From an uncultured Pseudomonadota bacterium (lineage in GTDB: Bacteria; Oederibacteriota; Muellerivitia; Muellerivitales; Muellerivitaceae): 64,000 bases of DNA. Of the stretch, positions 7,527 to 54,100 are shown in pieces. Numbering within the stretch: the stretch's first letter is position 1; every line of letters begins with the position of its first letter. The DNA lies in NCBI GenBank assembly GCA_963836235.1, contig CAWIIP010000002.1:1120001-1184000 (forward strand). Reading direction: 5' to 3'. The position numbers and the translations under genes were made by a program. The notes beneath the pieces are model-generated. The model made no database searches and was not told where the DNA came from. It was given only the letters and a program-made list of their open reading frames with translations.

Positions 7527-7756
7527 ATAGATCTCCTTGGATTTAATCATCAACGTCCTCACATAAGGCAATGGTCGTGCCAAAGAATCCCAGTGAAATA
7601 AGGCCCATCGCCCGGACCAAGGCCCTTGGATACACGACAAACTTACCCAGCCATGGAAACTTTTACCCAATTCCCTGGGCTAAAATCCCGGCTAATCCGC
7701 TAGGAAAAGGGGGTTCCTTTGTGTAGTCTTGGGAAATTCCAAACCAGGGAGCGCCC

Positions 7757-10665: not shown

Positions 10666-10724
10666 CATTAGAACTTGGTTATCATGATGCATATTAGTAT
10701 TTAACCTTGTTAAAGGAAAAATTT

Positions 10725-11609
10725 ATGCCGGGTGAAGGTCATCCGCTTTCTGAAGTTTTTGGCCACCTAACAACAGACAATACCAAAAGAGCTGTCCGTT
10801 ATAGATCCCTTCGACTCTGCCCCTTCAATAATAAGGTTCCTAATTGCACGAAAGACAAAGCCAAAAACCCTCTTGGCGTTTGTTCAATTTATTATGAGAA
10901 AAAACCGGTTATCACATGCCCCATACGTTTCAGAGAGGAATGGATAATAGCTGATGATGCCGCTAGTTTCTTTTTTGATGAAAATGCAAAGTGGAGTTCT
11001 TTAACCGAAGTTCGCTTAAATGACGCAAATAATAAAGCCGCAGGAAATATTGACGTCATCTTAGTGGCCTATGATAAGAATGGAAAAGTTGTCGATTTTG
11101 GAGCCTTGGAAGTCCAAGCGGTTTATATATCTGGTAACGTTCGTGATCCATTTGAATACTATATGAAAAACCCTAAGGGCCGCGGTTCGATGGATTGGTC
11201 TAACGAGCCAAATTATCCAAGACCAGACTACCTTTCTTCCTCAAGAAAAAGGTTAGCGCCTCAACTACTTTTCAAAGGCGGAATCCTACATAGCTGGAAC
11301 AAAAAAATGGCCGTTGCTTTGAATAAAGGTTTTTTTGAAACACTACCAAATATGAAACGAGTTTCTAAATCCAAGGCTGACATTGCTTGGCTTATCTATG
11401 ACTTGGTACCGGTCGAAGAAAATGGACAAGATAGATTTGTCCTTAAAAAAGTTGATGAAGTTTTCACGGAATTCGAACTGGCTTTAATTTCAATAACTAC
11501 AGCAACTCCTGGAAAGGTTGAAGATTTTATAAACCTTCTTCAAGAAAAACTTGATGAGCAGTTGGAAACACCGCCCACAAACAGAACAATAGAAAGACCG
11601 TTTAAATGA
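10725..11609 (+). CDS. NotI-like restriction endonuclease
   Basis: Four-Cys metal motif (CPF..NCTK..GVCS..TCPIRF), 'GNIDV', 'ALEVQAVYISG', 'RPDYLSSSRKRLAPQL'. Confidence 0.8.
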   Translation: MPGEGHPLSEVFGHLTTDNTKRAVRYRSLRLCPFNNKVPNCTKDKAKNPLGVCSIYYEKKPVITCPIRFREEWIIADDAASFFFDENAKWSSLTEVRLNDANNKAAGNIDVILVAYDKNGKVVDFGALEVQAVYISGNVRDPFEYYMKNPKGRGSMDWSNEPNYPRPDYLSSSRKRLAPQLLFKGGILHSWNKKMAVALNKGFFETLPNMKRVSKSKADIAWLIYDLVPVEENGQDRFVLKKVDEVFTEFELALISITTATPGKVEDFINLLQEKLDEQLETPPTNRTIERPFK

Positions 11610-12592
11610 CTTTACATAGCCAAACCTTGTTGTTTCCTGATTTGGAAACCAAAAACGAATACTTAAGGCCTGTCAATGTTTCATCGGTTCCTCAACGTAG
11701 CCCTTTTCGTTATCCAGGTGGAAAAACATGGTTTGTGCCCACATTTAGACAATGGATAGATTATTTAAATCCTAAACCAAAGTTGCTTATCGAACCATTT
11801 GCCGGGGGTGGAATAATAAGTTTAACTGCGGCGTTTGAAAATCTCGCTCCCAAGATATTAATGGTTGAATTGGACGATGAAATAGCAGCAGTTTGGGAAA
11901 CAGTTGTAAATGGAGGGTGCGATTGGCTCGCAAACAAAATTCTCAAATTTGATCTTACAGAAGAAACCGTCAAAAAAGAGTTAAAGAGAAAACTTCACTC
12001 ACAAAGGGAAAAAGCATTCCAAACGATTCTTAAAAATCGCACTTACCACGGAGGTATTTTAGCAAATGGTTCCGGCTTATTAAAATATGGTGAGAATGGA
12101 AAAGGAATTAAGTCTCGTTGGTATCCTATGACTCTTGCCAAAAGATTCTTTAATATGGACCAAGTTGTAATAAAAATAAAATTTCAACGAGAAGACGGTT
12201 TAAAAGTTATTCAAGAACATATAAACGATTCAAAGGCTATTTTCTTCATAGACCCCCCTTATACCGCCGGCGGGAAAAAAGCCGGTAAAAGGTTATATAA
12301 TTTTTGCGAGTTAGATCATGAACGTCTATTCGAACTGTGTTCTTCAATGAAAGGTGAATTTTTAATGACTTACGATAATGCTGACGAAGTTAAAGCAATG
12401 GCACGACAGTATGGTTTTCAAATGAGGTTGGTGCCTATGAAAAACACCCATCACGCTACAATGGAGGAATTAGTTGTCGGAAAAGATCTAACTTGGATGG
12501 ACAGATTTACTGGTGCCCACGAACCACAGGCCCCATACCTCATCAAAAACAGATCAAAAATTAGACATTCAAAAACAAAAAAAATCAGCTAA
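11606..12592 (+). CDS. DNA adenine methyltransferase (Dam/D12 class)
   Basis: 'SPFRYPGGK', 'EPFAGGG', 'FIDPPY'; 4-bp overlap with the endonuclease. Confidence 0.9.
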   Translation: MTLHSQTLLFPDLETKNEYLRPVNVSSVPQRSPFRYPGGKTWFVPTFRQWIDYLNPKPKLLIEPFAGGGIISLTAAFENLAPKILMVELDDEIAAVWETVVNGGCDWLANKILKFDLTEETVKKELKRKLHSQREKAFQTILKNRTYHGGILANGSGLLKYGENGKGIKSRWYPMTLAKRFFNMDQVVIKIKFQREDGLKVIQEHINDSKAIFFIDPPYTAGGKKAGKRLYNFCELDHERLFELCSSMKGEFLMTYDNADEVKAMARQYGFQMRLVPMKNTHHATMEELVVGKDLTWMDRFTGAHEPQAPYLIKNRSKIRHSKTKKIS

Positions 12593-16363: not shown

Positions 16364-17347
16364 TTAAATATTAATGTTCAACCCGACTTCGATGGGAATG
16401 TACCCGGCGGTTCCGCCCTGGCCAATGATCAAAGTATATTTAGCTTCCCCGAAAATATTCATGTCGGGGCCCATGGGAAGCTCGACACCTCCGCCCACTT
16501 GAATCGTCGGATAAATGCTGGAACCGCCGGGGGTGGAATAAGAGGTGTTAGGAAGCAAAGCTTCGTAATAAGGCGTATTGTAAGGTGGATCGAGAGTGTA
16601 GGTAGTCGAACCTGAACTGGACACCCCAAACATCGAAAGGCCCGCCCCGCCTAAAAGATAGGGTTTCATCCCGTTTCCCTCAAAGCGATATTTGCCGGAG
16701 GCCAAAATTTCAATGTTGGTCCAATTACCGTTGGAGACTTGAGTGCTTGAATAATAACTAGGAATTCCACCCTGTGTGGTGATGGTATTACTAAAGGTGT
16801 AAAAACCCACCGAACCTCCGATGAATAAACCATTTCCCGCAGGGAAATACCCCGCCACTCCTCCGCCAAACCCGAGGCCATACCCGCCCGAGGAAGATAA
16901 GGCGATCCCCGCCATAGGGTCCAACTCAAAACTCTTCGCTGAAGCGGCGCCTGTGGGCTTCATCGCCGCGGAAGGGGAAGTGGCTGTGTTAGAAGCCGTC
17001 GCCGCCGCGGGAGCGGGGGTTCCGGCCTGGGCCTGAAGGCTTTGCACGAAACTCGCCAGTTGGGGATTGTTAGGATTGATGGACAAGGCTTTTTGGTAGT
17101 TCACCAGGGCATTGGCGCTGTCGCCCTTGCCGTAATAACAATTCCCCATTCCCTGGTAAGACTGCCAGGAATTGGGATTGGTTTGAACCGCCCCTTGGTA
17201 ATAGCGGATGGCCAAATCGTAATTCTTTTGGGCGTAATAAGTATTGCCCGCGGCGTAATATTGCGCGGACATATCCTGCGCCCAGGAAGCCGAGGCCAAC
17301 CCGGTTAAAGTCATGAACATCACCACCACGAATCTCAATTGTTTCAT
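16364..17347 (-). CDS. TPR + Ala/Thr/Pro linker + small outer-membrane beta-barrel protein
   Basis: Signal peptide, TPR repeats, 'KYRF...PYLLGGAG', 'IFGEAKY', terminal strand 'VGLNINI'. Confidence 0.75.
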   Translation of the reverse strand: MKQLRFVVVMFMTLTGLASASWAQDMSAQYYAAGNTYYAQKNYDLAIRYYQGAVQTNPNSWQSYQGMGNCYYGKGDSANALVNYQKALSINPNNPQLASFVQSLQAQAGTPAPAAATASNTATSPSAAMKPTGAASAKSFELDPMAGIALSSSGGYGLGFGGGVAGYFPAGNGLFIGGSVGFYTFSNTITTQGGIPSYYSSTQVSNGNWTNIEILASGKYRFEGNGMKPYLLGGAGLSMFGVSSSGSTTYTLDPPYNTPYYEALLPNTSYSTPGGSSIYPTIQVGGGVELPMGPDMNIFGEAKYTLIIGQGGTAGYIPIEVGLNINI

Positions 17348-17637: not shown

Positions 17638-18696
17638 TTACAGGGACAAATTCACGCCCAATTGGACGGGAATCGAAAGGATCGGGCTATCCGAGGTGGC
17701 GCTATTGGGGCCATGGATCAGTTCGCCGGTCAGCCCCGAGGTAGGAGCGAAATCCAGGGCCACTTTTCCCTGGACGAAGAGGTTGAAGTCCTTGGCGACG
17801 TTGAAGGCCACGCCGAGTCCCGGGTCCAGCTCGAAATTAATCCAGCTCTCGTCGTTGGAAAAGGGGTTGTCAAGAGAATAGTCGAAAGCCACGCCCGCGC
17901 CCAAAAGCACGAAGGGGGTTACCACGCTGCCGGTGTTGATATTGTATTGGCCGACCAATTCCACGGGAACGTGGTTGAGGCCGCCGACACCGCCCCAAAC
18001 CTTGTTCGAAGCGGGAGTGGACCATTCATCAACGCCACATTCTAAGCCCAAGGTGAAGTCCTTGGAAAAGGCGTAACCGATCAAGCCTTCAATGGCGGGT
18101 CCGGCGCTGGTATTGTCCGCCAAACCGCTGCTGGCGGGAATCGTCAGCCCGCCCTGAATCTGAATCACTATTTTGCCATTATCCGAACCGGAGGGCATAG
18201 GGCTGGAAGGTTTGCTGCTGGCGGCCGCGACGGGAGTAGAAGCCACAGTGGCCGCGGTGGGAACCGGAGTGGCCACCATGGTGACAGTGGATGTGGAAGC
18301 GGTGGCAACGGTTGGAGTTGAGGCCGTAGTGGCCGGGACCGACGAAACGACGGCGGCGGCGGTAGAAGTAGCCGCCTTCGCCTGCATGCTTTGGGCCAAA
18401 CTCGCCAAGTGAGGGTTATTAGGATTGAGGGCCAGGGATTTTTGATAATTCATCAAGGCGGTGGCGCTGTCGCCCTTCACGTAATAACAATTCCCCAAGC
18501 CTTGGTAAGCCTGCCAGGAATTGGGGTTGGCTTGCAAAACAGCCTGGTAATCGATGATGGCTTGGTCATAATTTTTCGCGCCATAGGCCATATTAGCCGC
18601 CGATAAAGTTTGTCCTGAGGCGTCTTGGGCCCGTGCGGACCCGGCCAGACCGGCCAAAAGGATCAATGCCGCGATCACGAATCTCAATAGTTTCAT
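17638..18696 (-). CDS. TPR + Ala/Thr linker + outer-membrane beta-barrel protein (paralogue of 16364..17347)
   Basis: Near-identical N-terminus/TPR ('NPNSWQAYQGLGNCYY'), 'TPFVLLGAG', terminal 'LGVNLSL'. Confidence 0.75.
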   Translation of the reverse strand: MKLLRFVIAALILLAGLAGSARAQDASGQTLSAANMAYGAKNYDQAIIDYQAVLQANPNSWQAYQGLGNCYYVKGDSATALMNYQKSLALNPNNPHLASLAQSMQAKAATSTAAAVVSSVPATTASTPTVATASTSTVTMVATPVPTAATVASTPVAAASSKPSSPMPSGSDNGKIVIQIQGGLTIPASSGLADNTSAGPAIEGLIGYAFSKDFTLGLECGVDEWSTPASNKVWGGVGGLNHVPVELVGQYNINTGSVVTPFVLLGAGVAFDYSLDNPFSNDESWINFELDPGLGVAFNVAKDFNLFVQGKVALDFAPTSGLTGELIHGPNSATSDSPILSIPVQLGVNLSL

Positions 18697-42380: not shown

Positions 42381-42414
42381 TGGGCCGGTGGGTTCGATGG
42401 ACTCACCACAAGTT

Positions 42415-42454
42415 GGAGGGTTAGTCCTAATTGGTAAGGCAGTGGACTTGAAAT
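42415..42454 (+). tRNA. tRNA-Ser(TGA) 5' half only, broken just after the anticodon loop
   Basis: GGAGGGT-TA-GTCCTAATTGGTAAGGCA-GTGGA-CTTGAAA-T; the expected TCCAC, variable arm, T-arm and 3' acceptor strand do not follow. Confidence 0.85.
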
Positions 42455-42639: not shown

Positions 42640-42931
42640 AGGGCGTTTTTGAAATTTTCTTGTGGTCCCCTTTCCCGCTTAACTACCACGGGCAGTGAAA
42701 GGCAATGGACAACTGTGAAGTGCCTCTTCGCGAGGCCGGACCCTTCCGGTGTGACATGGATATGACACGGAGTGCATCGGAGTTAGTTTTCAAAACCTTC
42801 TTGTGTTCATCTGTTCTCTTTAGCTACTACTCGTAGCGGGAGGCAGTGGACAATTGTGAAATGCCCTTCTCCCCTTTCGAATCGGGCCTTTTCCAACCAG
42901 CCGAGTTTAATTTGATGCTAAAATGTGTAGC

Positions 42932-43690
42932 ATGGCTACACAAAACAAAAGCAAATTGAACCGAATCTTTACGGAATGGCCCCACGGCGCGGTCATTACC
43001 CTTAAATGGTTGTCCCAAAGGGGCGTAAGCCGGTTTTTGGCCCGGACCTATGTGAAGGGCGGTTGGATAAAATCCATGGGGGCGGGAGTTTTCTTCAAGG
43101 CCGGAACCAAACCCCTTTGGTCCGACGGGCTCCATGCCATCCAGAATCAACTCAAACTTCCAATTCATGCCGGGGGCGAGACCGCTCTCTCGTGGAATGG
43201 TTACGGCCATACCGCTTCCATGGGTTCCTTGCCACCCGCCTACCTATTTGGCCCACAGGGAATAAAATTGCCCTCCTGGTTTCTCCAACACGATTGGGGG
43301 AATAAGATCCAATACCAAACCACGGATTTTTTGCCCTACAAAAAGGAATTCGGCTTTACACAGGATAGGCAAACCGGTATAACCCTGTCCTCTCCTGAAA
43401 GAGCCATGCTTGAAACCCTCTTGTTAATGCCCCAACGCATAACTTTTGAAGGCGCGGCCCATTTGATGGAAGGCCTATCCACTTTGAGACCGGATTTGAC
43501 GGCGCGCCTCCTAAGAGCTTGCCGATCCGTCAAAGTGAAGCGTTGTTTTCTCTATTTAGCCGAACAAATAAACCACACATGGTTCCATCGTCTCGACCTT
43601 TCCAAGGTGGACTTGGGCAAGGGAAAAAGGGTTGTGGTCCCAGGCGGCGAGTTTGACCGAAATTACCAAATCACAGTTCATCCCTGGTGA
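42932..43690 (+). CDS. Type IV TA AbiEi-family antitoxin (AbiEi_3-like), orphan
   Basis: 'SKLN....WPHG', 'HAGGETAL', 'SSPERAMLE', 'CRSVKVKRCFLYLA', 'DLGKGKR'. Confidence 0.85.
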   Translation: MATQNKSKLNRIFTEWPHGAVITLKWLSQRGVSRFLARTYVKGGWIKSMGAGVFFKAGTKPLWSDGLHAIQNQLKLPIHAGGETALSWNGYGHTASMGSLPPAYLFGPQGIKLPSWFLQHDWGNKIQYQTTDFLPYKKEFGFTQDRQTGITLSSPERAMLETLLLMPQRITFEGAAHLMEGLSTLRPDLTARLLRACRSVKVKRCFLYLAEQINHTWFHRLDLSKVDLGKGKRVVVPGGEFDRNYQITVHPW

Positions 43691-43769: not shown

Positions 43770-46097
43770 TTAACCCATCATCCCCAATGATCGATAGGTC
43801 TTTTGCCTACGCCAGGCCATTTTCTTGAGGACCGGCACAAAATCATCCAAGTAGTCATAGACCACGGCGTTCTTCTTGCCTTCATAAGTTCGCTGAACCC
43901 TACCCAAATATTGGATAAGCTTTCCTTTGAAGGAAATGGGGAAAGCCAGGAATAGGGTATCCAGTTTGGGGCAGTCAAAACCTTCCCCAAGATATTGGCC
44001 GGTGGCCACCAGCAGGATTTCGGCGTCGGGGGTCGCTTCCATAACCTCTTGGAACACCGCCGCCCTTTCCTTTTTTCCCATGCCACCGGTTAAAAGCTTG
44101 GGTGATTTCCCCGCTTCCCTCAGCAGTTCAACCAACCTATGGCAATGCTCTTTCCGTTGGCTCAACACCAAACATTTCCGCCCTTCCGAGAGGGCTTGCG
44201 CCACATCCTCGACGACCATCCTGTCTCGGTCCTCATCCTGGGCTAAGGCCCGGAAAATCTCCTGGATGGAAAATTCTTCGCCAGCTTGCTCAAAACGGAA
44301 GTTGGTGGGCCGGATTTTAAGCGTGGTTTCCAAGCCCTCTTTGTCTTCGGCCATTCGGTAACGGAGCGGGCCGCATTGCATGAAGATCAAGTCCTGAAGC
44401 CCGTCCCGGCGGATGGGCGTGGCGGTCAACCCCAAGATATACCGGGCCGGGGCCTGTTTGATGTACTGCTCAAATGATACGGCGGGCAAAACATGACACT
44501 CGTCCACCAGGATGAAACCGTACCGGGAAAAGAATTCCCTCAAATCCTCCATCCGCTTGAGGCTCTGGATCATGGCTAAGTCCACGATGCCAGTAGAACG
44601 TTTCCTACCGCCGCCAACTTGGCCGATTTGCTTGGACTTCAATCCCAACATCTTTTTCAATTGGGCACGCCATTGGTCCAGGATCGGCTTACGGTGGGAA
44701 AGGATAAGGGTTGGTAGGTTGCGCCGGGCGACGGCGTAACAACCCATCACCGTCTTCCCTGCTCCCGGCGGGGCCACAAGAACCCCGCTTTCATACTGCA
44801 ACACCACTTTTATGGCCTTCTCTTGGTTCGCGGTTAATTCCCCTTGAAACTTAAATTTCAGGGGATCATGAGCCAACCGGGTGTCGGTTATTTCCACGTA
44901 GCTTCCAGCCTCTTCCAATATTTTTTTCAAATCCTCCAAGGTGCCACGGGGGAAGTGGAGATAGGCGGCGTCCTCTCCGTAACAGCGGATGAATCTCGGA
45001 ATCCCATAAGTGGAAAATCTCATGTTCTGGCGCTCATAGAAAACCGGGTTGTGCAGGGAAGCCAGGTGCTTAATCTGGGATAAAAGCCAAGGAGGCAATC
45101 CCGATTTTTCGACACTGACGGAAGCATCCAAGACACACCGAACCAATGCCGGAGCCGGGTATTTTTTCTTGAGGGCGGGCGAAACGGCTTTAGCCACCGT
45201 TTGAGGGCCGACTTCGATAGGCGGAATCTTTTCAAGTAACACGGACAACTGACCGGGGCTCAACCGTCGTACCGAGCTTAGGAAAGCCCATTGGTCGGGA
45301 TAGGGCTTCATCTCCGGGTCCGCTTGGTCCAAGAATTCGGTGCACCCCAATTCCCGTCGTTGCTTTTGAAGGGGCAGGGCGATCAAGTTTCCAAAACCGC
45401 CCCTTGGCATGAAGTCCTGGTTGGGGAAGAAGCGGTCATAGCTGGCTAAATCCACCTCGGCTCTTTTTTCCATGGTGTCCCGCAAGAGCCGTAAGCCCAA
45501 CTGTCGGGCGGATACGGCTTGGACGGGGGCCAAAAAGAATACCCAGGCGTGGCCGCCGTTCCCCGACCTGGATTTTTCAAGGTAGGCTGGAATGCCGTAG
45601 GAAGCGCAAGATTGCAGGTAGGCCAAAGCATCCAATTCCCAACCGGCCTTGTCGAAGTCGCAAGCCAAGAACCAGCAGGTGTTGTCTTTGAGGAGGGGAT
45701 AAACACCGATGGTCTTCTTGCCGGATAAATGATCCTGGACCACTTGATCGGTTAAGGGCAGGTACTTCTTAGGCTTTCCCTTTCCCACCCATGGATTTTC
45801 GCAAGCCGGGGAATAACCCTTTTTGCCGGTTGTCTGGTTCATCCACAATGCCGGATACACATCCTCCCGGCCCTTAAAGAGGATTCGGAAGAGGTTTATC
45901 TTCTCCTGGCTGGAAGAATGGGAATCCACCTTGGGCAGTGGTTCCGATTCCAAAGGCGGCGGCAAAGGTGCTTCCAGGGAATAATCGGCGGAGACTTCGT
46001 GAGCGGCGACGTCCGGCAGCCCTAATCGTCTTTTCAGTTCCGCGTTCTCAAGCGTTAACCGCTTGATTTCCTTAAGGGCATCTTCCAATTCAGACAT
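43770..46097 (-). CDS. AEP (TOTE-type primase-like) domain fused to SF2 DExH helicase
   Basis: 'FLACDFD', 'EKSRSGNGGHAW', 'GNLIALPL'; helicase 'PGAGKT', 'DECH', 'LTATP', 'GEGFD', 'QYLGRVQR'. Confidence 0.85.
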   Translation of the reverse strand: MSELEDALKEIKRLTLENAELKRRLGLPDVAAHEVSADYSLEAPLPPPLESEPLPKVDSHSSSQEKINLFRILFKGREDVYPALWMNQTTGKKGYSPACENPWVGKGKPKKYLPLTDQVVQDHLSGKKTIGVYPLLKDNTCWFLACDFDKAGWELDALAYLQSCASYGIPAYLEKSRSGNGGHAWVFFLAPVQAVSARQLGLRLLRDTMEKRAEVDLASYDRFFPNQDFMPRGGFGNLIALPLQKQRRELGCTEFLDQADPEMKPYPDQWAFLSSVRRLSPGQLSVLLEKIPPIEVGPQTVAKAVSPALKKKYPAPALVRCVLDASVSVEKSGLPPWLLSQIKHLASLHNPVFYERQNMRFSTYGIPRFIRCYGEDAAYLHFPRGTLEDLKKILEEAGSYVEITDTRLAHDPLKFKFQGELTANQEKAIKVVLQYESGVLVAPPGAGKTVMGCYAVARRNLPTLILSHRKPILDQWRAQLKKMLGLKSKQIGQVGGGRKRSTGIVDLAMIQSLKRMEDLREFFSRYGFILVDECHVLPAVSFEQYIKQAPARYILGLTATPIRRDGLQDLIFMQCGPLRYRMAEDKEGLETTLKIRPTNFRFEQAGEEFSIQEIFRALAQDEDRDRMVVEDVAQALSEGRKCLVLSQRKEHCHRLVELLREAGKSPKLLTGGMGKKERAAVFQEVMEATPDAEILLVATGQYLGEGFDCPKLDTLFLAFPISFKGKLIQYLGRVQRTYEGKKNAVVYDYLDDFVPVLKKMAWRRQKTYRSLGMMG

Positions 46098-47352: not shown

Positions 47353-47456
47353 TGACCATTATAACGTCTGACGTTAGTTTGGTCAAAAACCCCTTTTTCA
47401 GGGGTGACCTTCATGTAAGTTCGACCAAACTACGGACACTCCGCAGTATGGTCGAA
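47353..47456 (-). promoter_or_regulatory. Sigma70 promoter with two GACCA-N21-TGGTC palindromes
   Basis: Minus strand TTGACC(47386-47381)-N17-TATAAT(47363-47358), 7 nt before ATG 47350; palindromes 47353-47385 and 47420-47456. Confidence 0.75.
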
Positions 47457-47482
47457 AGCCTTATGAGAAAAGGGAGAGTAAT

Positions 47483-47656
47483 ATGAACAAGGGAAAGAAA
47501 GACAAGGATTTGAAGGAATTCGGGGCAAGCCTTCGTGAAGGCCTTAAATATGCGCGTGGGAAGAAGGCCAAAGTGAAGACTGAATCAATAGGTCTTTTGC
47601 CTACGCCAAGCCATTTTTTTGAGGCCAGGCACAAAGTCATCCAAGTAGTCATATAA
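47483..47656 (+). pseudogene. Truncated antitoxin-like 5' fragment fused to a duplicated piece of the helicase 3' end
   Basis: MNKGKKDKDLKEFGASLREGLKYARGKKAKVKT then sequence matching 43790-43859. Confidence 0.5.
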
Positions 47657-47770: not shown

Positions 47771-47829
47771 TGTAACATAAATAATGAACTGTAACACATA
47801 ATATGTTACAGTTCGTAAGTTGTGTTACA
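47771..47829. promoter_or_regulatory. Symmetric four-box operator (TGTAACA x2 / TGTTACA x2)
   Basis: gaactgtaaca-N7-tgttacagttc (47786-47814) plus outer boxes at 47771-47777 and 47823-47829, all centred on 47800. Confidence 0.75.
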
Positions 47830-47843
47830 TTTACGAGGGCTAA

Positions 47844-48833
47844 ATGCTTGTTCAAGACTTTAAAGATTACCTACAGGAAACCCTGGGTATCCAAACTCAA
47901 CCCATGCCCTGGAACAATGCCAAGGCTTTGCCTTTTCTATTACTGGACCGATACGAATTTTTCGATGTCTCCCTCCTAAAAACCCATTGTCTCTTGATGA
48001 CCCCAAAAGGTGATGAGGAAGTAACTTCCACCGTTATCCGTAAGCATTTGGAAATGGCGAAGGAAAAATGGACGAAAGACGTCATCTACGTTTCAAAAAG
48101 TTTATCTCCCATTAACCGCAAACGGCTTATCGAACATAAGGTTCCCTTTGTCGTACCGGGCAATCAACTTTACTTGCCCAATATGGGCATGGACCTTAGA
48201 GAACATTTTAAAAAAAACCACTCGGCCCCGGAAACCTATAGCCCCGCCACCCAAGTAATCGTGTTAGACGCCCTTGTCCATGGTTATAAGGAGCCTTTGA
48301 ATGTCCGCAAACTGGCAAAGAAATTAGAGTATTCCCCTATGACCCTTACCCGTGCCTTAAATGAAATTGAGAAGACGGGTGTAGGAACAGTCCAGATTAT
48401 AGGGCGGGAAAGAAAATTGAAATTCGACCTATCCAAAAGGGCTTTATGGGAAAAAGCGCTAAAATACCTTCAAACCCCAGTCAAAAGCCGGAACCTGATT
48501 TATGACAAAAATTACAAACCAGGATCTGAAAAAATCAAAGCCGGGTTGTATGCCTTGGCTCAATATTCAAACTTAGCTGAATCGAAAGAAAAGATTTATG
48601 CCCTAAGTTCGGGCCAGTACAATTCCCTCAAAAATAAAAATGAATTGTTAAATTCAAATGATGAATCCGCGCCAATGACCTGGTTGGAAATTTGGAGCTA
48701 TGATCCTAAACGCTTGTCTCAAGATGGCCTTGCGGACCCTTTCTCGCTTTATTTAAGCTTGCGAAGCGAAGGAGAAATCGATGAGCGAGTACATTCCGCG
48801 CTAGAACAAATGATGGAGAACCATGCATGGTAA
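47844..48833 (+). CDS. wHTH-containing AbiEi-like regulator/antitoxin
   Basis: 'RKRLIE.KVPFVVPGNQLYLP', HTH 'LAKKLEYSPMTLTRALNE', 'EIWSYDP', 'DPFSLYLSL...DERV'. Confidence 0.7.
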   Translation: MLVQDFKDYLQETLGIQTQPMPWNNAKALPFLLLDRYEFFDVSLLKTHCLLMTPKGDEEVTSTVIRKHLEMAKEKWTKDVIYVSKSLSPINRKRLIEHKVPFVVPGNQLYLPNMGMDLREHFKKNHSAPETYSPATQVIVLDALVHGYKEPLNVRKLAKKLEYSPMTLTRALNEIEKTGVGTVQIIGRERKLKFDLSKRALWEKALKYLQTPVKSRNLIYDKNYKPGSEKIKAGLYALAQYSNLAESKEKIYALSSGQYNSLKNKNELLNSNDESAPMTWLEIWSYDPKRLSQDGLADPFSLYLSLRSEGEIDERVHSALEQMMENHAW

Positions 48834-49582
48834 GAGGTCTGGATCTTTTTAAAGCGCATTTCCAGGAACATACAAATTCATTTGTCGTTATCGGAGGAAC
48901 CGCATGTTCCATCCTTCTGGAAAATGCCGGTTTAACCGCAAGGGCCACGGATGACATTGATATGGTGCTGTATGTCGAACGGCCAAACCCGGTTTTCGGA
49001 AATGCTTTTTGGGATTTCATAAAAAAAGGAAATTACGAAACATGGCAAAACAGCCCCGAGAGGAAAAACTTTTTTCGATTTTTAAAACCAATGGATTCGA
49101 AATTCCCCGAAAAAATTGAACTCCTTTCTTCGAAACCAGAAGGAATTGAACTACGTGAAAGTAGCCGTTTTACCCCCATTCCTTTTGAAGATGAGGCTTC
49201 GAGTCTTTCGGCAATATTGATGGACGATGATTACTATCAATTTCTTCAAAAAGGCCACAAAGTTATCCAAGGCCTTCCTGTGATTGGGGCCGAACAACTT
49301 ATTCCTTTAAAAGCCAAGGCCTTCTTGGATTTGACACAGCGAAAAGAACAAGGAATAAAAATAAATAGCGATGACATTAAAAAACACAAAACAGATGTAT
49401 TCCGGCTTTACCAATTATTAGCCCCGGCAGATCGCCTAGAACTTCCGGCTTCTATTAAAGCGGACATGAATCAGTTCTTACAAACTGTCAGGAAAGAGCC
49501 CTTCGATTTAAAAAATCTGAAAATTCAAACTGTTACTTTTGAAGAGGTATCGGATAATTTAAAGACCATCTACAGCCTTTAA
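48827..49582 (+). CDS. AbiEii-like nucleotidyltransferase
   Basis: 'IGGTAC', 'RATDDIDMV', 'LIPLKAKA', 'KHKTDV'; overlaps upstream regulator. Confidence 0.75.
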   Translation: MVRGLDLFKAHFQEHTNSFVVIGGTACSILLENAGLTARATDDIDMVLYVERPNPVFGNAFWDFIKKGNYETWQNSPERKNFFRFLKPMDSKFPEKIELLSSKPEGIELRESSRFTPIPFEDEASSLSAILMDDDYYQFLQKGHKVIQGLPVIGAEQLIPLKAKAFLDLTQRKEQGIKINSDDIKKHKTDVFRLYQLLAPADRLELPASIKADMNQFLQTVRKEPFDLKNLKIQTVTFEEVSDNLKTIYSL

Positions 49583-49599
49583 GGAGAAAAACCTTTCCA

Positions 49600-49732
49600 C
49601 TGGCCTCGGTCACCTTTGGAGATCCTCTAGACACCCCCTTCCCCTGAGGAGTTGCCACAAGCCCCTTTAAAACCCTAATGGAAGAAATGGCCGAAAGTTG
49701 AGCATTAATAATTTATAATTGGGCCAAATATT
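49600..49732 (+). repeat. Intergenic cassette repeat, copy 1
   Basis: ctggcctcggtcacctttggagatcctc...atggaagaaatggccgaaagttgagcattaataatttataattg. Confidence 0.85.
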
Positions 49733-49750
49733 GCACTTTAACTTAAGGAA

Positions 49751-50533
49751 ATGCTAATGGTTGATTTTGAAGCAAAGAGCTTAATTGAATATCTTTACAA
49801 CGTAAATTTAATTGAGAAAGAATATGGAATCGATAAATGGCGGCCCAAAATGGATCACATATGGTTTCGAGGGGTTACCAACGCCGACAATCATCATTTA
49901 ATTCCAACAATTTATAGAGAGCCGATAGAATCGAAAAGTGAAAGAGAAATTAATAGGGATTTCAAATTACAATCGCGCCCTTTTACCAAATCTCAAGCAT
50001 TAAATGATTTGGAACTTTTATTTATTGGACGGCATCATGGGCTGCCTACAAGATTATTGGATTGGTCTGCCGGTTCATTAATAAGTCTTTACTTTGCTGT
50101 TCACGAATACAAAGAACCAACCGATGGAATGGTTTGGCTTTTACGTCCAAGGAAATTTAATAAACTCACCATCAATTTGAAATCCATCCCTTCAGAACAT
50201 GAGAATAAGAAAATATTTAATAATTATTTGAAACTACCCATTAAACAAGCACTGCCGATGGCAATCCGATCCTCGTTTATTACTGAAAGGATTATTTCTC
50301 AAAAAGGTTTTTTTACAATTCATGGTTCTGAAAATATTTCAATAGAGTCAATTCAAAAAGCTAACAAAAAAACAACTTTTCTAAAAAGCGTACGAATTCC
50401 TTTTAACAACAAAGTTGAGATTTTAAATCAACTTGCCAAGGCCGGTATTTCCCAAAGCACCTTGTTTCCAGATTTGGATGGTCTAAGTGCAGAAATTAGA
50501 GATCGATACAACAAAGAAAGAATTGTTAAATAA
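49751..50533 (+). CDS. FRG domain protein
   Basis: 'WFRG', 'RHHGLPTRLLDWS', 'RIISQKGFF', 'LFPDLDGL'. Confidence 0.92.
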   Translation: MLMVDFEAKSLIEYLYNVNLIEKEYGIDKWRPKMDHIWFRGVTNADNHHLIPTIYREPIESKSEREINRDFKLQSRPFTKSQALNDLELLFIGRHHGLPTRLLDWSAGSLISLYFAVHEYKEPTDGMVWLLRPRKFNKLTINLKSIPSEHENKKIFNNYLKLPIKQALPMAIRSSFITERIISQKGFFTIHGSENISIESIQKANKKTTFLKSVRIPFNNKVEILNQLAKAGISQSTLFPDLDGLSAEIRDRYNKERIVK

Positions 50534-50560
50534 ATCATTCCGGAGTGTTCGAAAATCACT

Positions 50561-50685
50561 CTGGTCCCGGCTACCTTCGATGATCCTCGGCACACCCCTT
50601 TCCCCTTGGCGTTTTCCCTTTAATAACCTCATGGAAGAAATGGCTGAAAGTTGAGCATTAATAACTCATAATTGATTCAAATATT
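50561..50685 (+). repeat. Intergenic cassette repeat, copy 2
   Basis: ctggtcccggctaccttcgatgatcctcggcac...; 50631-50674 matches 49678-49721 at 41/44. Confidence 0.85.
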
Positions 50686-50703
50686 TAGGGGAAGGCATAA
50701 GTC

Positions 50704-51657
50704 ATGAACTTATTTATAGACACAAATATCTATTTAGACTTTTACCATTACACCGGTGAGACGCTAGAAGAATTAAAAAAACTTGTTGTTGCAATTGAAA
50801 CAAAAGCGATAAGACTATTTTTAACACCCCAAGTGTTAAATGAATTTAACCGTAATAGAGAATCGAAAATTGCAGATGCGATTAAACGATTTTCAGAACA
50901 AAAGTTGAACAATCAATTTCCTCAGATTTGTAAGGAATATAAAGAGTTTGAAAATTTAAAAATGGCAATTAAAGAATTCGAAGAAAGCAAAGATAAGATT
51001 CTGCAACAACTATACGAAGATATTAAAAACAGAACATTGGGAGCCGATAAAATCATTAACGAATTATTTAATAAATCCGAAAATATAAAGTGGACAACGG
51101 ATATTATTGCGGAATCTAAAATGAGAATGGATTTGGGAAATCCTCCCGGCAAGGATGGTTCCTATGGCGATGCTGTAAATTGGGAATTACTACTATCAGG
51201 CGTTCCTAACGAGGACTTATATTTCATAACAGACGATAAAGATTATATTTCAAAAATAAATGATAAAAACCTTGACCCGTATCTCGAAGGGGAATGGAAA
51301 TCAAAAAAGAATTCTGAAATAATTTTTTATAGACGTTTGTCCGAATTTTTTAGTAAAAAATATCCCCGTGTGAAAATGGCAAATCAAATGGAGTTAGACG
51401 GTGCTGTGGAGATGTTAATAAATAGCGGAAGTTTTTTTACAACTCATTCGGCTATTTCGAAATTAAACATTTTTGCAGATTATACAGATGATCAAGTAAA
51501 TGCAATTGTCAAAGCTAGTGTTGAAAATAGTCAAATATCCCTCATAAGGGAAGATTCTGATGTGAAAGAATTTTTAAAAATATTTGTAAAATCTTACGAA
51601 AATAAAATAGAACCTTCGTTGCTTCAAAGATTTCAACAACTGTATTTGTACCCTTAA
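50704..51657 (+). CDS. Stand-alone long PIN-domain protein
   Basis: 'LFIDTNIYLDFY', 'EFNRNR', 'SYGDAVNWE', 'FITDDKDY'. Confidence 0.85.
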   Translation: MNLFIDTNIYLDFYHYTGETLEELKKLVVAIETKAIRLFLTPQVLNEFNRNRESKIADAIKRFSEQKLNNQFPQICKEYKEFENLKMAIKEFEESKDKILQQLYEDIKNRTLGADKIINELFNKSENIKWTTDIIAESKMRMDLGNPPGKDGSYGDAVNWELLLSGVPNEDLYFITDDKDYISKINDKNLDPYLEGEWKSKKNSEIIFYRRLSEFFSKKYPRVKMANQMELDGAVEMLINSGSFFTTHSAISKLNIFADYTDDQVNAIVKASVENSQISLIREDSDVKEFLKIFVKSYENKIEPSLLQRFQQLYLYP

Positions 51658-51659
51658 TA

Positions 51660-51696
51660 GAAAATAGGAAAGCTTCCAAAACGCTATCCTATTTTC
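51660..51696. terminator. Hairpin after PIN gene
   Basis: gaaaatagga...tcctattttc. Confidence 0.55.
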
Positions 51697-51714
51697 AGGG
51701 GGAAGGCATTCCCT

Positions 51715-51746
51715 CTGGCCTCGGCCACCTTCGGCGATCCTCGGCA
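51715..51746 (+). repeat. Intergenic cassette repeat, copy 3 (5' core only)
   Basis: ctggcctcggccaccttcggcgatcctcggca. Confidence 0.8.
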
Positions 51747-51858
51747 TAGAAACTTTTCCCAAATTAACGTTGTCAATCATCTTGCTAATACCTAGACGAA
51801 ATATGGGTGCACCACTCTCGCCTGGAAATGGGCCGTAAATTCTGAGAAAAAAATACTT

Positions 51859-52830
51859 TTATGGTAATAAAGGTTGCTGGAAGAAAGGTTGCGGCATGAA
51901 CTGTACTTGGGGAACAGCTTTCATAAATCCAGTTCCCAGGTGGTTTTCAATTATTTTAAAACGACTAGAATTACTTAAAGCAAACATTAGGCAATGATGT
52001 ATTGTTAAAACTAAGTCTTGAAAATCTCCCGGCGTTTGGATGGTTTCATTCTCTATACTTTTGATTATCAATCCCATTTCTAAACATTCTTGTTCGTGAA
52101 TGTGACGGTCGTGTCCTTTGTTTCCTTTGAAATCTGTAAGCTTTGTGACAATATTTTTTGCTTTCTTTTTTGCATCTGGATCGCCCAAAAACATATTTTG
52201 CTCTAATTGTTCTTGGACAAATTCCTCTGAGCGGTCAATGGCATTTTGGCATTGATCCAAAAATGTGGGCATATATTTTCCAATAATCGATTGCCACATA
52301 CTAATTTTGCTTGGATCGTCTTTTACTTCTTTGCAAGCTCTCTCAAATTCTTGAATTACCCCATATGCAGGTATTCCTCTTAAGTGGGGATCTATTGGTC
52401 CTAAGTTGGAATGCTTGGCCATAAATATATCTTTGCAAGAACAAGCGATCATTGTTCCGGCGGACATAGCTATTTGCGGAATGATTGCCCGTATATTTTT
52501 ACCAAACATTTTATGTAAATAATCCACTATCGATTGAGTGGCAGAACTACTGCCACCAGGAGTATGAAGAAAAAGGTCTAACCCTTTTTCCCGTTCAAGC
52601 TTGTGAATCGCCACCATAAATCCATTTTTATCTTCATCTGAAATGCTCGAATCGATTTCTGGCTTTGATAGAAAACCGGAGTAATAAACAATAATATTGC
52701 GGTTAGTCAAATTATGAAGTTGGTTTAGATACTTTATTGTGATTTCTTTTAAAGCATTGGCGGGATTAGGGTTTTGAGGGTCAACAGGATAGGCTTTTAT
52801 CTCTTCAAATACTTCATTCCAATTTGGCAT
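51859..52830 (-). CDS. ClpP-fold serine protease (SDH_sah/S49-like)
   Basis: 'LFLHTPGG', 'AMSAGT', 'LGPIDP', 'GHDRHI'. Confidence 0.85.
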   Translation of the reverse strand: MPNWNEVFEEIKAYPVDPQNPNPANALKEITIKYLNQLHNLTNRNIIVYYSGFLSKPEIDSSISDEDKNGFMVAIHKLEREKGLDLFLHTPGGSSSATQSIVDYLHKMFGKNIRAIIPQIAMSAGTMIACSCKDIFMAKHSNLGPIDPHLRGIPAYGVIQEFERACKEVKDDPSKISMWQSIIGKYMPTFLDQCQNAIDRSEEFVQEQLEQNMFLGDPDAKKKAKNIVTKLTDFKGNKGHDRHIHEQECLEMGLIIKSIENETIQTPGDFQDLVLTIHHCLMFALSNSSRFKIIENHLGTGFMKAVPQVQFMPQPFFQQPLLP

Positions 52831-53025: not shown

Positions 53026-53472
53026 GACCTAACCTCCTCACCAAAGTTAAGTTTTTCAACCGACGAATACTAGTATACCTATACTAAGTTTTCAATACTA
53101 GAAATCCCAAAGCCGACTTAATAGAATGCAAGATTTTGGGCAATTTATCACGGATTTTGCATATCACTTCGAAAGAGTCTCAAGTTCCTCCAACATAAAT
53201 TCAATTGGGACGCAAACCGGCTCTCGGGCGGCTATCGCCGTCGGGGTCGGTCGGCGCCTAAAAGCCAAAACGGGCCGGGCTTCGTTCCTCGCTGATCCGG
53301 CCGCACGGATGTTTTGGCTTTTCCCCCGATTCTGCTAAAAGAACACCGCACGACCCCTCGAATCCGATTTGCTATAACCAACACCTCTGTCTCTCCGTTT
53401 GGGCCCCCCAGATTTCGTGAGGGGGCCCACCCGGAGGGTGGCTCTCCTCAATTACGAACGCGGAGCCCAACC

Positions 53473-53958
53473 ATGAAAAAGGCCAGACAAGAGGAGTTGA
53501 GTTTTGAAGGGATGTTTAAGATACCCCCAACGGTTCCCCCGGTGAGCTGGGCGGAAGCCAGGTCAGACTATAAAAGGGGTCCAATAGTAGGTAGCCCCAA
53601 TGAAGCCACGGAATACTTTAAAAAGTATATCGGAGGTAAGAAAACCGAGGCCTTCCTGACAATGTACCTAGACCACCGGAATCATGTTTTGGACGTGGTT
53701 TTGAACCAGGAAGGGACCGTGGACCATACAGCCGTATATCCTCGTGAGGTCCTCAAGAAGGCCCTTGAATTGGAAGCTACAGGGATCATCTTTAGCCACA
53801 ATCACCCGGCCGGGAGCCTAGAGCCCTCCGAGGGCGATAAAGCCTTAACCCGCCAGATTTGCACCGCCGCTAGAGCCTTGGGAATCACGGTTCATGACCA
53901 TTTAATCGTGACCCATGAAGGCCATTTTTCCTTTAGACAAGCTGGGCTTCTGGCATAA
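53473..53958 (+). CDS. radC: RadC-like JAB domain protein (short form)
   Basis: 'EAF..MYLD..N', 'GTVDHTAVYPREV', 'HNHPAG..EPSEGD', 'DHLIV'. Confidence 0.9.
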   Translation: MKKARQEELSFEGMFKIPPTVPPVSWAEARSDYKRGPIVGSPNEATEYFKKYIGGKKTEAFLTMYLDHRNHVLDVVLNQEGTVDHTAVYPREVLKKALELEATGIIFSHNHPAGSLEPSEGDKALTRQICTAARALGITVHDHLIVTHEGHFSFRQAGLLA

Positions 53959-54007: not shown

Positions 54008-54100
54008 GTTGGGCCGTTCCCTCCCAAACCCTCCCCGAAATGCCTTTAAAACCTTTTCTTTAAGAACCCCAAACCCAATTGATTGTTGTTTGGCGGTTAG

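Follow-up and report, generated by a model that had tools for sequence, protein, structure and literature searches.

What kind of sequence separates the single genes that follow one another between positions 49600 and 51746 of the DNA analysed here (a stretch of 64,000 nucleotides, which we call the window), and how did these genes come to be arranged in this way? A preliminary description of the locus noticed three related intergenic units, at 49600, 50561 and 51715, and read them as the sites of an integron-like system in which each gene is captured together with a standard promoter. All three units are real. Their pairwise local scores are 142, 70 and 66, against maxima of 43, 49 and 51 in 300 shuffles; with a matrix made from the three cores they reach 45-49 bits, while no other site in the 64 kb exceeds 9.7, and a copy left out of the matrix is still detected by it. 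BLAST, the matrix scan and a covariance model find no fourth copy in the 64-kb window. The units do lie shortly after stop codons, beginning -5, 5 and 35 bp from the stop codon of a gene on the same strand. Other details had to be corrected. The consensus offered as the common core is copy 3 itself (32/32 positions, compared with 27/32 for copy 1 and 28/32 for copy 2), the GGTCACC/GGTGATC hairpin placed within it is weak (cores 1 and 2 fold as DNA at -0.1 to -2.2 kcal/mol), and the supposed recurrence of part of copy 1 at 54043, before a GNAT-PIN operon, scores 31, below the shuffle maximum of 38 and hence at chance level. The true unit exceeds that core by about 20 bp on the left and about 40 bp on the right.

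The three repeats are decayed copies of a discrete element of about 90 bp, here called R. They and their neighbours are as follows.

47844..49582, plus strand: MarR-like HTH gene and a 251-aa gene, upstream of copy 1
49578..49668, plus strand: R copy 1, full length and decayed (first hairpin 4 bp, third hairpin broken)
49678..49732, plus strand: promoter-like block C behind copy 1 (CCGAAA-17-TATAAT)
49757..50533, plus strand: FRG-domain cargo gene, PADLOC PDC-S15 candidate defence protein, best other homologue 55%
50553..50623, plus strand: R copy 2, first and third hairpins lost, 8-nt deletion
50631..50685, plus strand: promoter-like block C behind copy 2 (CTGAAA-17-CATAAT)
50704..51657, plus strand: PIN_12-domain cargo gene, PDC-S34 match weak
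51658..51695, no strand assigned: inverted repeat directly after the PIN stop, a possible terminator, seen by folding and absent from the terminator scan
51692..51842, plus strand: R copy 3, long form, with the 5' part to 51746, an insert, and a decayed 3' part from 51810
51859..52830, minus strand: ClpP-like SDH protease gene, convergent on copy 3
53473..53958, plus strand: RadC-like JAB gene

The gene identities given in the preliminary description were correct: FRG (PF08867) and PIN (PIN_12) are unrelated to each other and have a GC content of 0.34 and 0.31. Copy 3 is followed by the convergent protease gene, with no co-oriented cassette gene behind it. Upstream of copy 1, the 251-aa gene looks nucleotidyltransferase-like by inspection and has no family match, and a 29-bp inverted repeat (47771-47829) directly before the MarR-like gene is likely to be its autoregulatory operator. 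On the other side, the RadC-like gene is possibly the remnant of an operon once headed by R; a GC-rich hairpin-like leader upstream of it (53200-53470) has no match in the loci that we fetched.

How far the copies have decayed is best judged against intact copies from the relative loci described below. Identities to the 82-nt copy of one of these loci, L010, number 76-79 of 82 positions for intact copies, 63 for copy 1 and 57 for copy 2. None of the window copies folds better than its shuffles (z +0.7 to +1.7), the z-scores in the folding analysis of R being alike on both strands, and the multi-stem-loop structure present in intact copies is absent from all three. Copy 3 retains the first hairpin in a shortened form and carries a 63-nt insert (51747-51809), a layout that it shares with the copy at locus L005. 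The window copies are 65-71% identical to one another, compared with 73-80% to intact short copies elsewhere, and copies 1 and 2 are each nearer to the copy at locus L003 (79%) than to one another (71%). Because of this last relationship, and because copy 3 has the L005-like long form, the array is not a recent local triplication. So, judging from sequence relationships, at least two lineages of R appear to have been brought together here and to have decayed afterwards.

The differences among the decayed copies have a peculiarity of their own. Over 49579-49701, 50561-50654 and 51694-51747, 15 of 24 fall on every third base; variable columns by codon position number 4/5/15 in the window copies (p=0.003, in one of three frames) and 2/4/5 in intact copies. 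We considered a coding remnant and rejected it: protein searches returned no parent (one search gave two matches to repetitive proteins), and intact copies are intergenic. The third-base bias of the window copies stands in contrast to the non-coding nature of intact copies. A terminator was likewise rejected: the first hairpin has its T-run on the 5' side, and no terminator is called at R by the scan.

Block C is a separate matter. As first described, copies 1 and 2 share a block of 44 nt (41/44 identical) with a TATAAT or CATAAT box; this -10-like hexamer has a weak -35 placed 17 bp upstream of it. Between the two copies block C is identical at 39/43 positions and R at 41/57 (Fisher p=0.024), which suggests that the block has been retained while the hairpins of R were lost, and we propose that it was retained because it drives the FRG and PIN genes. 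Among the 11 copies with downstream sequence, block C follows R clearly in copies 1 and 2 and in L003 only, and weakly in L008; the idea of a standard package of site and promoter is not supported by this count.

Where else does R occur? One scan of GTDB genomes with a degenerate pattern gave 11 loci, and eight of them carry R: seven in candidate division FCPU426 (five genomes) and one in an uncultured bacterium. The remaining three (L004, L006 and L009) match the pattern alone and were dropped as chance; the source genome of the window is itself not among the matches. Genomes hold 1 to 3 loci with the exact pattern. In all eight loci R is intergenic, among toxin-antitoxin, defence or metal-resistance genes, and in seven of the eight it is a single element. 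A tRNA, or its attachment half, lies upstream on the same strand in five of the eight, with R co-oriented with the tRNA in all five. Among the 19 flanking proteins that were compared there are only two related pairs. Different genes thus stand beside the repeat in relatives, as the preliminary description had predicted, and in L010 a different gene stands between two copies at the same insertion site.

Intact R is built of a hairpin of a G-run and a C-run, a central imperfect hairpin that is variable, a C-rich linker and a final perfect hairpin. When 12 copies are compared in pairs its limits are discrete, from about -20 to about +70 relative to the core, and similarity between islands begins and ends at its edges. 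In the FCPU426 alignment 90% of cells are paired, and the stems are retained across phyla despite changed sequence. Covariation within FCPU426 amounts to two pairs among eight related sequences, one of them decayed copy 1, and in an alphaproteobacterial alignment the covariation term is positive, that is, unfavourable. A hand-made three-hairpin descriptor, written after the copies had been seen, matches 12 sites and none in five shuffles; it finds none in the window and misses L001, L011, L016 and L017. R has no match in Rfam. Searches of the main texts of papers returned no description of it, and four short motifs gave no papers. ORF calling places an upstream stop no more than 41 bp away from seven of the 12 copies (an eighth, L008, looks like a spurious frame), and wherever sequence is available R stands upstream of a co-oriented gene, copy 3 excepted.

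The window copies sit in an island, whose left end and mobilization module are listed here with the intact R of L010.

42414..42453, plus strand: 5' half of tRNA-Ser(TGA), left attachment repeat, 40/40 identical to both element ends in L010
62005..64000, plus strand: RHH gene and VirD4/TraD-like coupling protein, a mobilization module that runs off the window
9980-10074 of L010: intact R

From about 42.4 kb rightward the island holds AbiEi, an AEP-TOTE helicase, AAA_14, the MarR-like pair, FRG, PIN and the SDH protease, then RadC, GNAT-PIN with ASCH, a type III restriction system, HTH, RHH and the VirD4-like coupling protein. Only the left attachment repeat falls inside the window. L010 belongs to another species and is inserted at the same tRNA-Ser site; the host genes of the window match it at 74% over 2.1 kb, so that FCPU426 is the probable lineage of the window too, and the RHH and coupling proteins are 34% and 46% identical to their counterparts there. 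Its order is: attachment half, cargo, R, a small ORF, a second, decayed R, more cargo, RHH, coupling protein, Replic_Relax-like protein, a long inverted repeat, excisionase, tyrosine integrase and intact tRNA-Ser (at 18117). The relaxase call is that of the atlas (score 0.94, structure TM 0.67), the protein having no Pfam or NCBIfam match. L010 thus has 40-bp attachment repeats at a tRNA together with an integrase, and the window has a coupling protein with no mating-pore system. This part of the window forms the cargo hotspot of an integrative mobilizable element (IME), full of defence-type cargo and inserted at tRNA-Ser. Insertion is directed to the 5' half of tRNA-Ser(TGA), with repeats at 2683-2722 and 18116-18155 of L010 and the crossover near the anticodon loop, and this is why the intact tRNA stands at the far, integrase end.

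Several features of the island are recorded here in their own right. The 3' end of the gene for the AEP-TOTE helicase (43790-43859) recurs at 91% identity as a 70-bp sequence at 47584-47653, fused there to a truncated HTH-antitoxin-like ORF (47484-47656), a recombination scar; because of this second scar the island is to be seen as a patchwork. A palindromic motif of about 40 bp upstream of the AAA_14/DUF4143 gene (47420-47463), possibly an operator, has two copies in L010 (9802-9843 and 9859-9898). The AbiEi antitoxin gene (42923-43690) has no adjacent AbiEii partner. Elsewhere in the window an AT-rich insert of two genes (10707-12592, GC about 0.39-0.45) includes a Dam-like methyltransferase and is probably a restriction-modification pair.

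The same arrangement of hairpins is found far from FCPU426. Compared with plasmids, an intact copy of R gave weak BLAST matches (E 0.3 and 3) that on inspection had the same layout; following them up led to 34 plasmid records, ten of which were fetched and compared. (Spacers 1 and 3 of the window, compared with plasmids by BLAST, gave nothing useful.) A model made from FCPU426-type copies only detects nine of the ten plasmid loci at E<=0.03; these values are rough, and one unrelated site in L002 reaches 0.018. In the other direction, a profile of eight plasmid copies not chosen by the first BLAST ranks the main copy first in all eight relative loci, a ranking driven mostly by the first hairpin; three plasmid loci found by the last hairpin alone still have the first hairpin where it is expected. 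In these alphaproteobacterial and acidobacterial conjugative elements the hairpins head ardC/DUF932/ParB/toprim operons. The next gene at the ten plasmid loci is ardC in four, DUF932 in two, toprim in one and unnamed or unannotated in three; ParB, SSB or RepB-type primase genes are near, and defence genes often lie just upstream. In the FCPU426 islands it is cargo that follows R, not ardC-type genes. R is thus an apparently undescribed three-hairpin cis-element of conjugative elements, found across phyla at the edges of cargo hotspots.

Two more distant likenesses may be mentioned. The AT-rich Campylobacter plasmid pVir (L024) has GC-rich hairpin sites on the same strand at 7687 and 25411, after ardC and near toprim. 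They match the last hairpin and tail of the plasmid form of R, a looser link than for the other plasmids, and both point away from the likely oriT side; given this direction, a reading of R as a leading-region site may not be general. In a single-stranded DNA phage of the Microviridae (PQ006547.1, L014) an intergenic cluster of hairpins at 2293-2365 has 19 nt in common with the first hairpin of R, the sole match in a phage BLAST and a weak one (E about 4; model E 0.15).

What might R do, and how did three copies come to alternate with genes? We give about one chance in two to the following explanation as a whole: the island is a cargo hotspot, R is a backbone site of the element, and the array was built by homology and has since decayed. 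R would be a conserved cis-acting site that folds on the transferred single strand, and the folded form would serve second-strand priming or early establishment. That R is a priming signal of the ssi/sso type we suggest by analogy and tentatively, its chances falling a little short of even, because it is GC-rich with several hairpins, keeps its structure while its sequence drifts, has an apparently fixed orientation and heads establishment operons. Excerpts of the literature describe sso1 of ICEBs1 as orientation-specific with three predicted stem-loops (PMC4595007), ssi and sso as functionally comparable (PMC7690428), and signals of this type on transferred single-stranded DNA (bioRxiv 2026.01.09.698686; ssiA in PMC8567376). 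The array itself was probably built by homology-driven recombination. Incoming and resident elements would recombine at or near R, because R is the one long sequence common to the cargo regions of many islands of the lineage; deletion would follow and leave arrays of the form R-gene-R-gene-R, in which surplus copies of R would decay. Tandem accretion and decay are described as common in IMEs and CIMEs in part of PMC5704250. Two different genomes share a 2.9-kb block, comprising R and three cargo genes, at 98.9% identity (L001 523-3402 and L007 9838-12719), which from the sequences is a recent transfer; it begins 163 bp upstream of R, and its three downstream genes have no R between them.

Some observations sit less easily with recombination by homology. 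A cassette model accounts no less well for the tandem copies of R around single genes in both islands at this attachment site and for the closeness of R to upstream stops.

A first alternative is that R is a regulatory leader, either a promoter or operator or a structured 5' RNA, standing before establishment genes, with cargo captured behind it for the sake of expression. Its place before co-oriented genes and at the head of ardC-type operons speaks for this, as do the repeated regulatory regions before establishment genes described for p576 in an excerpt of PMC6294495. Yet R is GC-rich, and the scan calls no -10 or -35 boxes in copies 1-3 outside block C, itself separate and limited to a subfamily. 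Together with the missing Rfam match and the pVir site that comes after ardC, not before it, this makes a leader unlikely in our opinion.

The alternative nearest to the preliminary description is that R is a site of site-specific recombination, acting as a folded single strand like attC or in the manner of RecHS, with cassettes moved by a recombinase of the element or of a helper and the array now old and frozen. The pattern R-gene-R with different genes in both islands at this attachment site suits such a site, and so do the sharp limits of R. The second copies in the window and in L010 both begin inside the first hairpin, beside the upstream stop, and a RecA-independent recombination site in the backbone of IncA/C plasmids is described in part of PMC5587640. 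The single elements in seven of eight relative loci argue against it, as does the transferred block just described, with three genes and no R between them and an edge 163 bp away from R. No tyrosine-recombinase motif occurs in the six frames of the window, and no integron integrase among 21 ORFs compared with Pfam or, of the 56 long ORFs between 1 and 40 kb, the 30 compared with NCBIfam. The integrase of L010 scores 38 bits, compared with an integron-integrase cut-off of 265, and is located at the tRNA; the plasmid copies of R precede backbone genes. We therefore doubt this explanation. A variant of it would be that a folded-site family common to several phyla was co-opted in the FCPU426 islands to provide the crossovers of a cassette system other than an integron. 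An enzyme of the element (integrase, relaxase or primase-linked) would cut or restart at R on the transferred DNA, and units of R, promoter and gene would be released and inserted to give arrays of defence genes. This, too, we regard as having a small chance.

Less probable still is that R is an origin of transfer used by the relaxase of a helper, the islands being of the oriT-only kind and the arrays arising by relaxase-mediated recombination between origins. Most R-bearing islands do have no relaxase within 10 kb, R is co-oriented with the tRNA wherever there is one, and an excerpt of bioRxiv 2026.01.13.699239 describes as common such oriT-only islands, with defence genes close to oriT. L010, however, offers a better candidate for oriT, the very stable inverted repeat at 16430-16520 (z -9.5), which lies right after the Replic_Relax-like gene and is followed by short direct repeats; R is about 5 kb from that gene. 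Related sites also occur on plasmids typed MOBP, MOBQ and MOBF, and on pVir they are 6-12 kb from the relaxase gene.

An origin of R as a REP or MITE, dispersed by a transposase of the Y1 or another type, is largely refuted and very improbable: the ends of R are complementary at about 13/14 nt by eye and Y1 genes lie near R in two of eight loci, but no boundary pair has a target-site duplication of 3-9 bp in at least three of six full copies, R is confined to islands in an apparently fixed orientation with 1 to 3 pattern matches per genome, and, with three copies in 64 kb, it is not a REP spread through the window.

How does the locus compare with known systems? With sso1 of ICEBs1 and the ssi/Frpo class, R shares the form of a non-coding site, apparently fixed in orientation, with several stem-loops in a mobile element; the likeness to the three predicted stem-loops of sso1 (as given in part of PMC4595007) is one of layout, not of sequence. 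Frpo has -10 and -35 boxes inside a long stem, whereas R has no such boxes, those of block C lying outside the hairpins, and shuffled sequences fold as well as R with block C of copies 1 and 2. The window differs from sso/ssi sites also in having decayed tandem copies between cargo genes. IMEs with their own VirD4 coupling protein and a MobC-type relaxase resemble L010, with its tRNA-targeting tyrosine integrase, coupling protein and Replic_Relax-like relaxase. In CIME accretion it is the attachment site that is repeated, whereas the repeat of the window is internal and unrelated to the tRNA attachment repeat.

The resemblance to integrons lies in the succession of AT-rich genes, one at a time and unrelated, with a repeat placed between them after the stop codon. 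Unlike integrons, the window has neither IntI nor paired attC boxes, its repeat is followed by a promoter block of its own, and the copies of R are decayed, and mostly single in relatives. The preliminary description was right in calling the repeat non-attC: the three spacers have no RYYYAAC on the plus strand, and GTTRRRY is found only at the FRG stop and, as a lone box, in block C. Of the proposed integron-like capture, the variable genes between repeats are confirmed; a dedicated cassette recombinase remains hypothetical, and an active capture system is not supported. The single elements in relatives, the diverged window copies with broken hairpins, the want of a recombinase motif in the window and the place of R in the backbone of conjugative elements from other phyla all count against active capture, and the window array looks inactive. 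The cassette idea was thus partly right, in its pattern, with its mechanism unproven.

RecHS of IncA/C plasmids is likewise a conserved backbone site adjoining the point of cargo insertion; according to the same excerpt of PMC5587640, it is one inverted repeat of 14 bp with a 6-bp spacer and proven RecA-independent recombination, whereas R has three hairpins and is a putative crossover site.

PeSLs of T4-type phages and the CUP repeats of pKM101 are repeated promoter and stem-loop modules that shuffle genes. Like R, they are repeated intergenic modules before unrelated genes and may offer homology for exchange. They are promoter modules, whereas in the window hairpin element and promoter block are separable.

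Few elements have a known non-coding signal for the establishment of transferred DNA, and such signals are difficult to detect from sequence. R is a concrete candidate, common to FCPU426 islands and to alphaproteobacterial and acidobacterial conjugative elements and, more loosely, to pVir of Campylobacter. Since it marks the edges of defence-gene hotspots, it could be used as a bait for new defence genes. If R also acts as a crossover site, it would provide a second route to cassette-like arrays, besides integrons.
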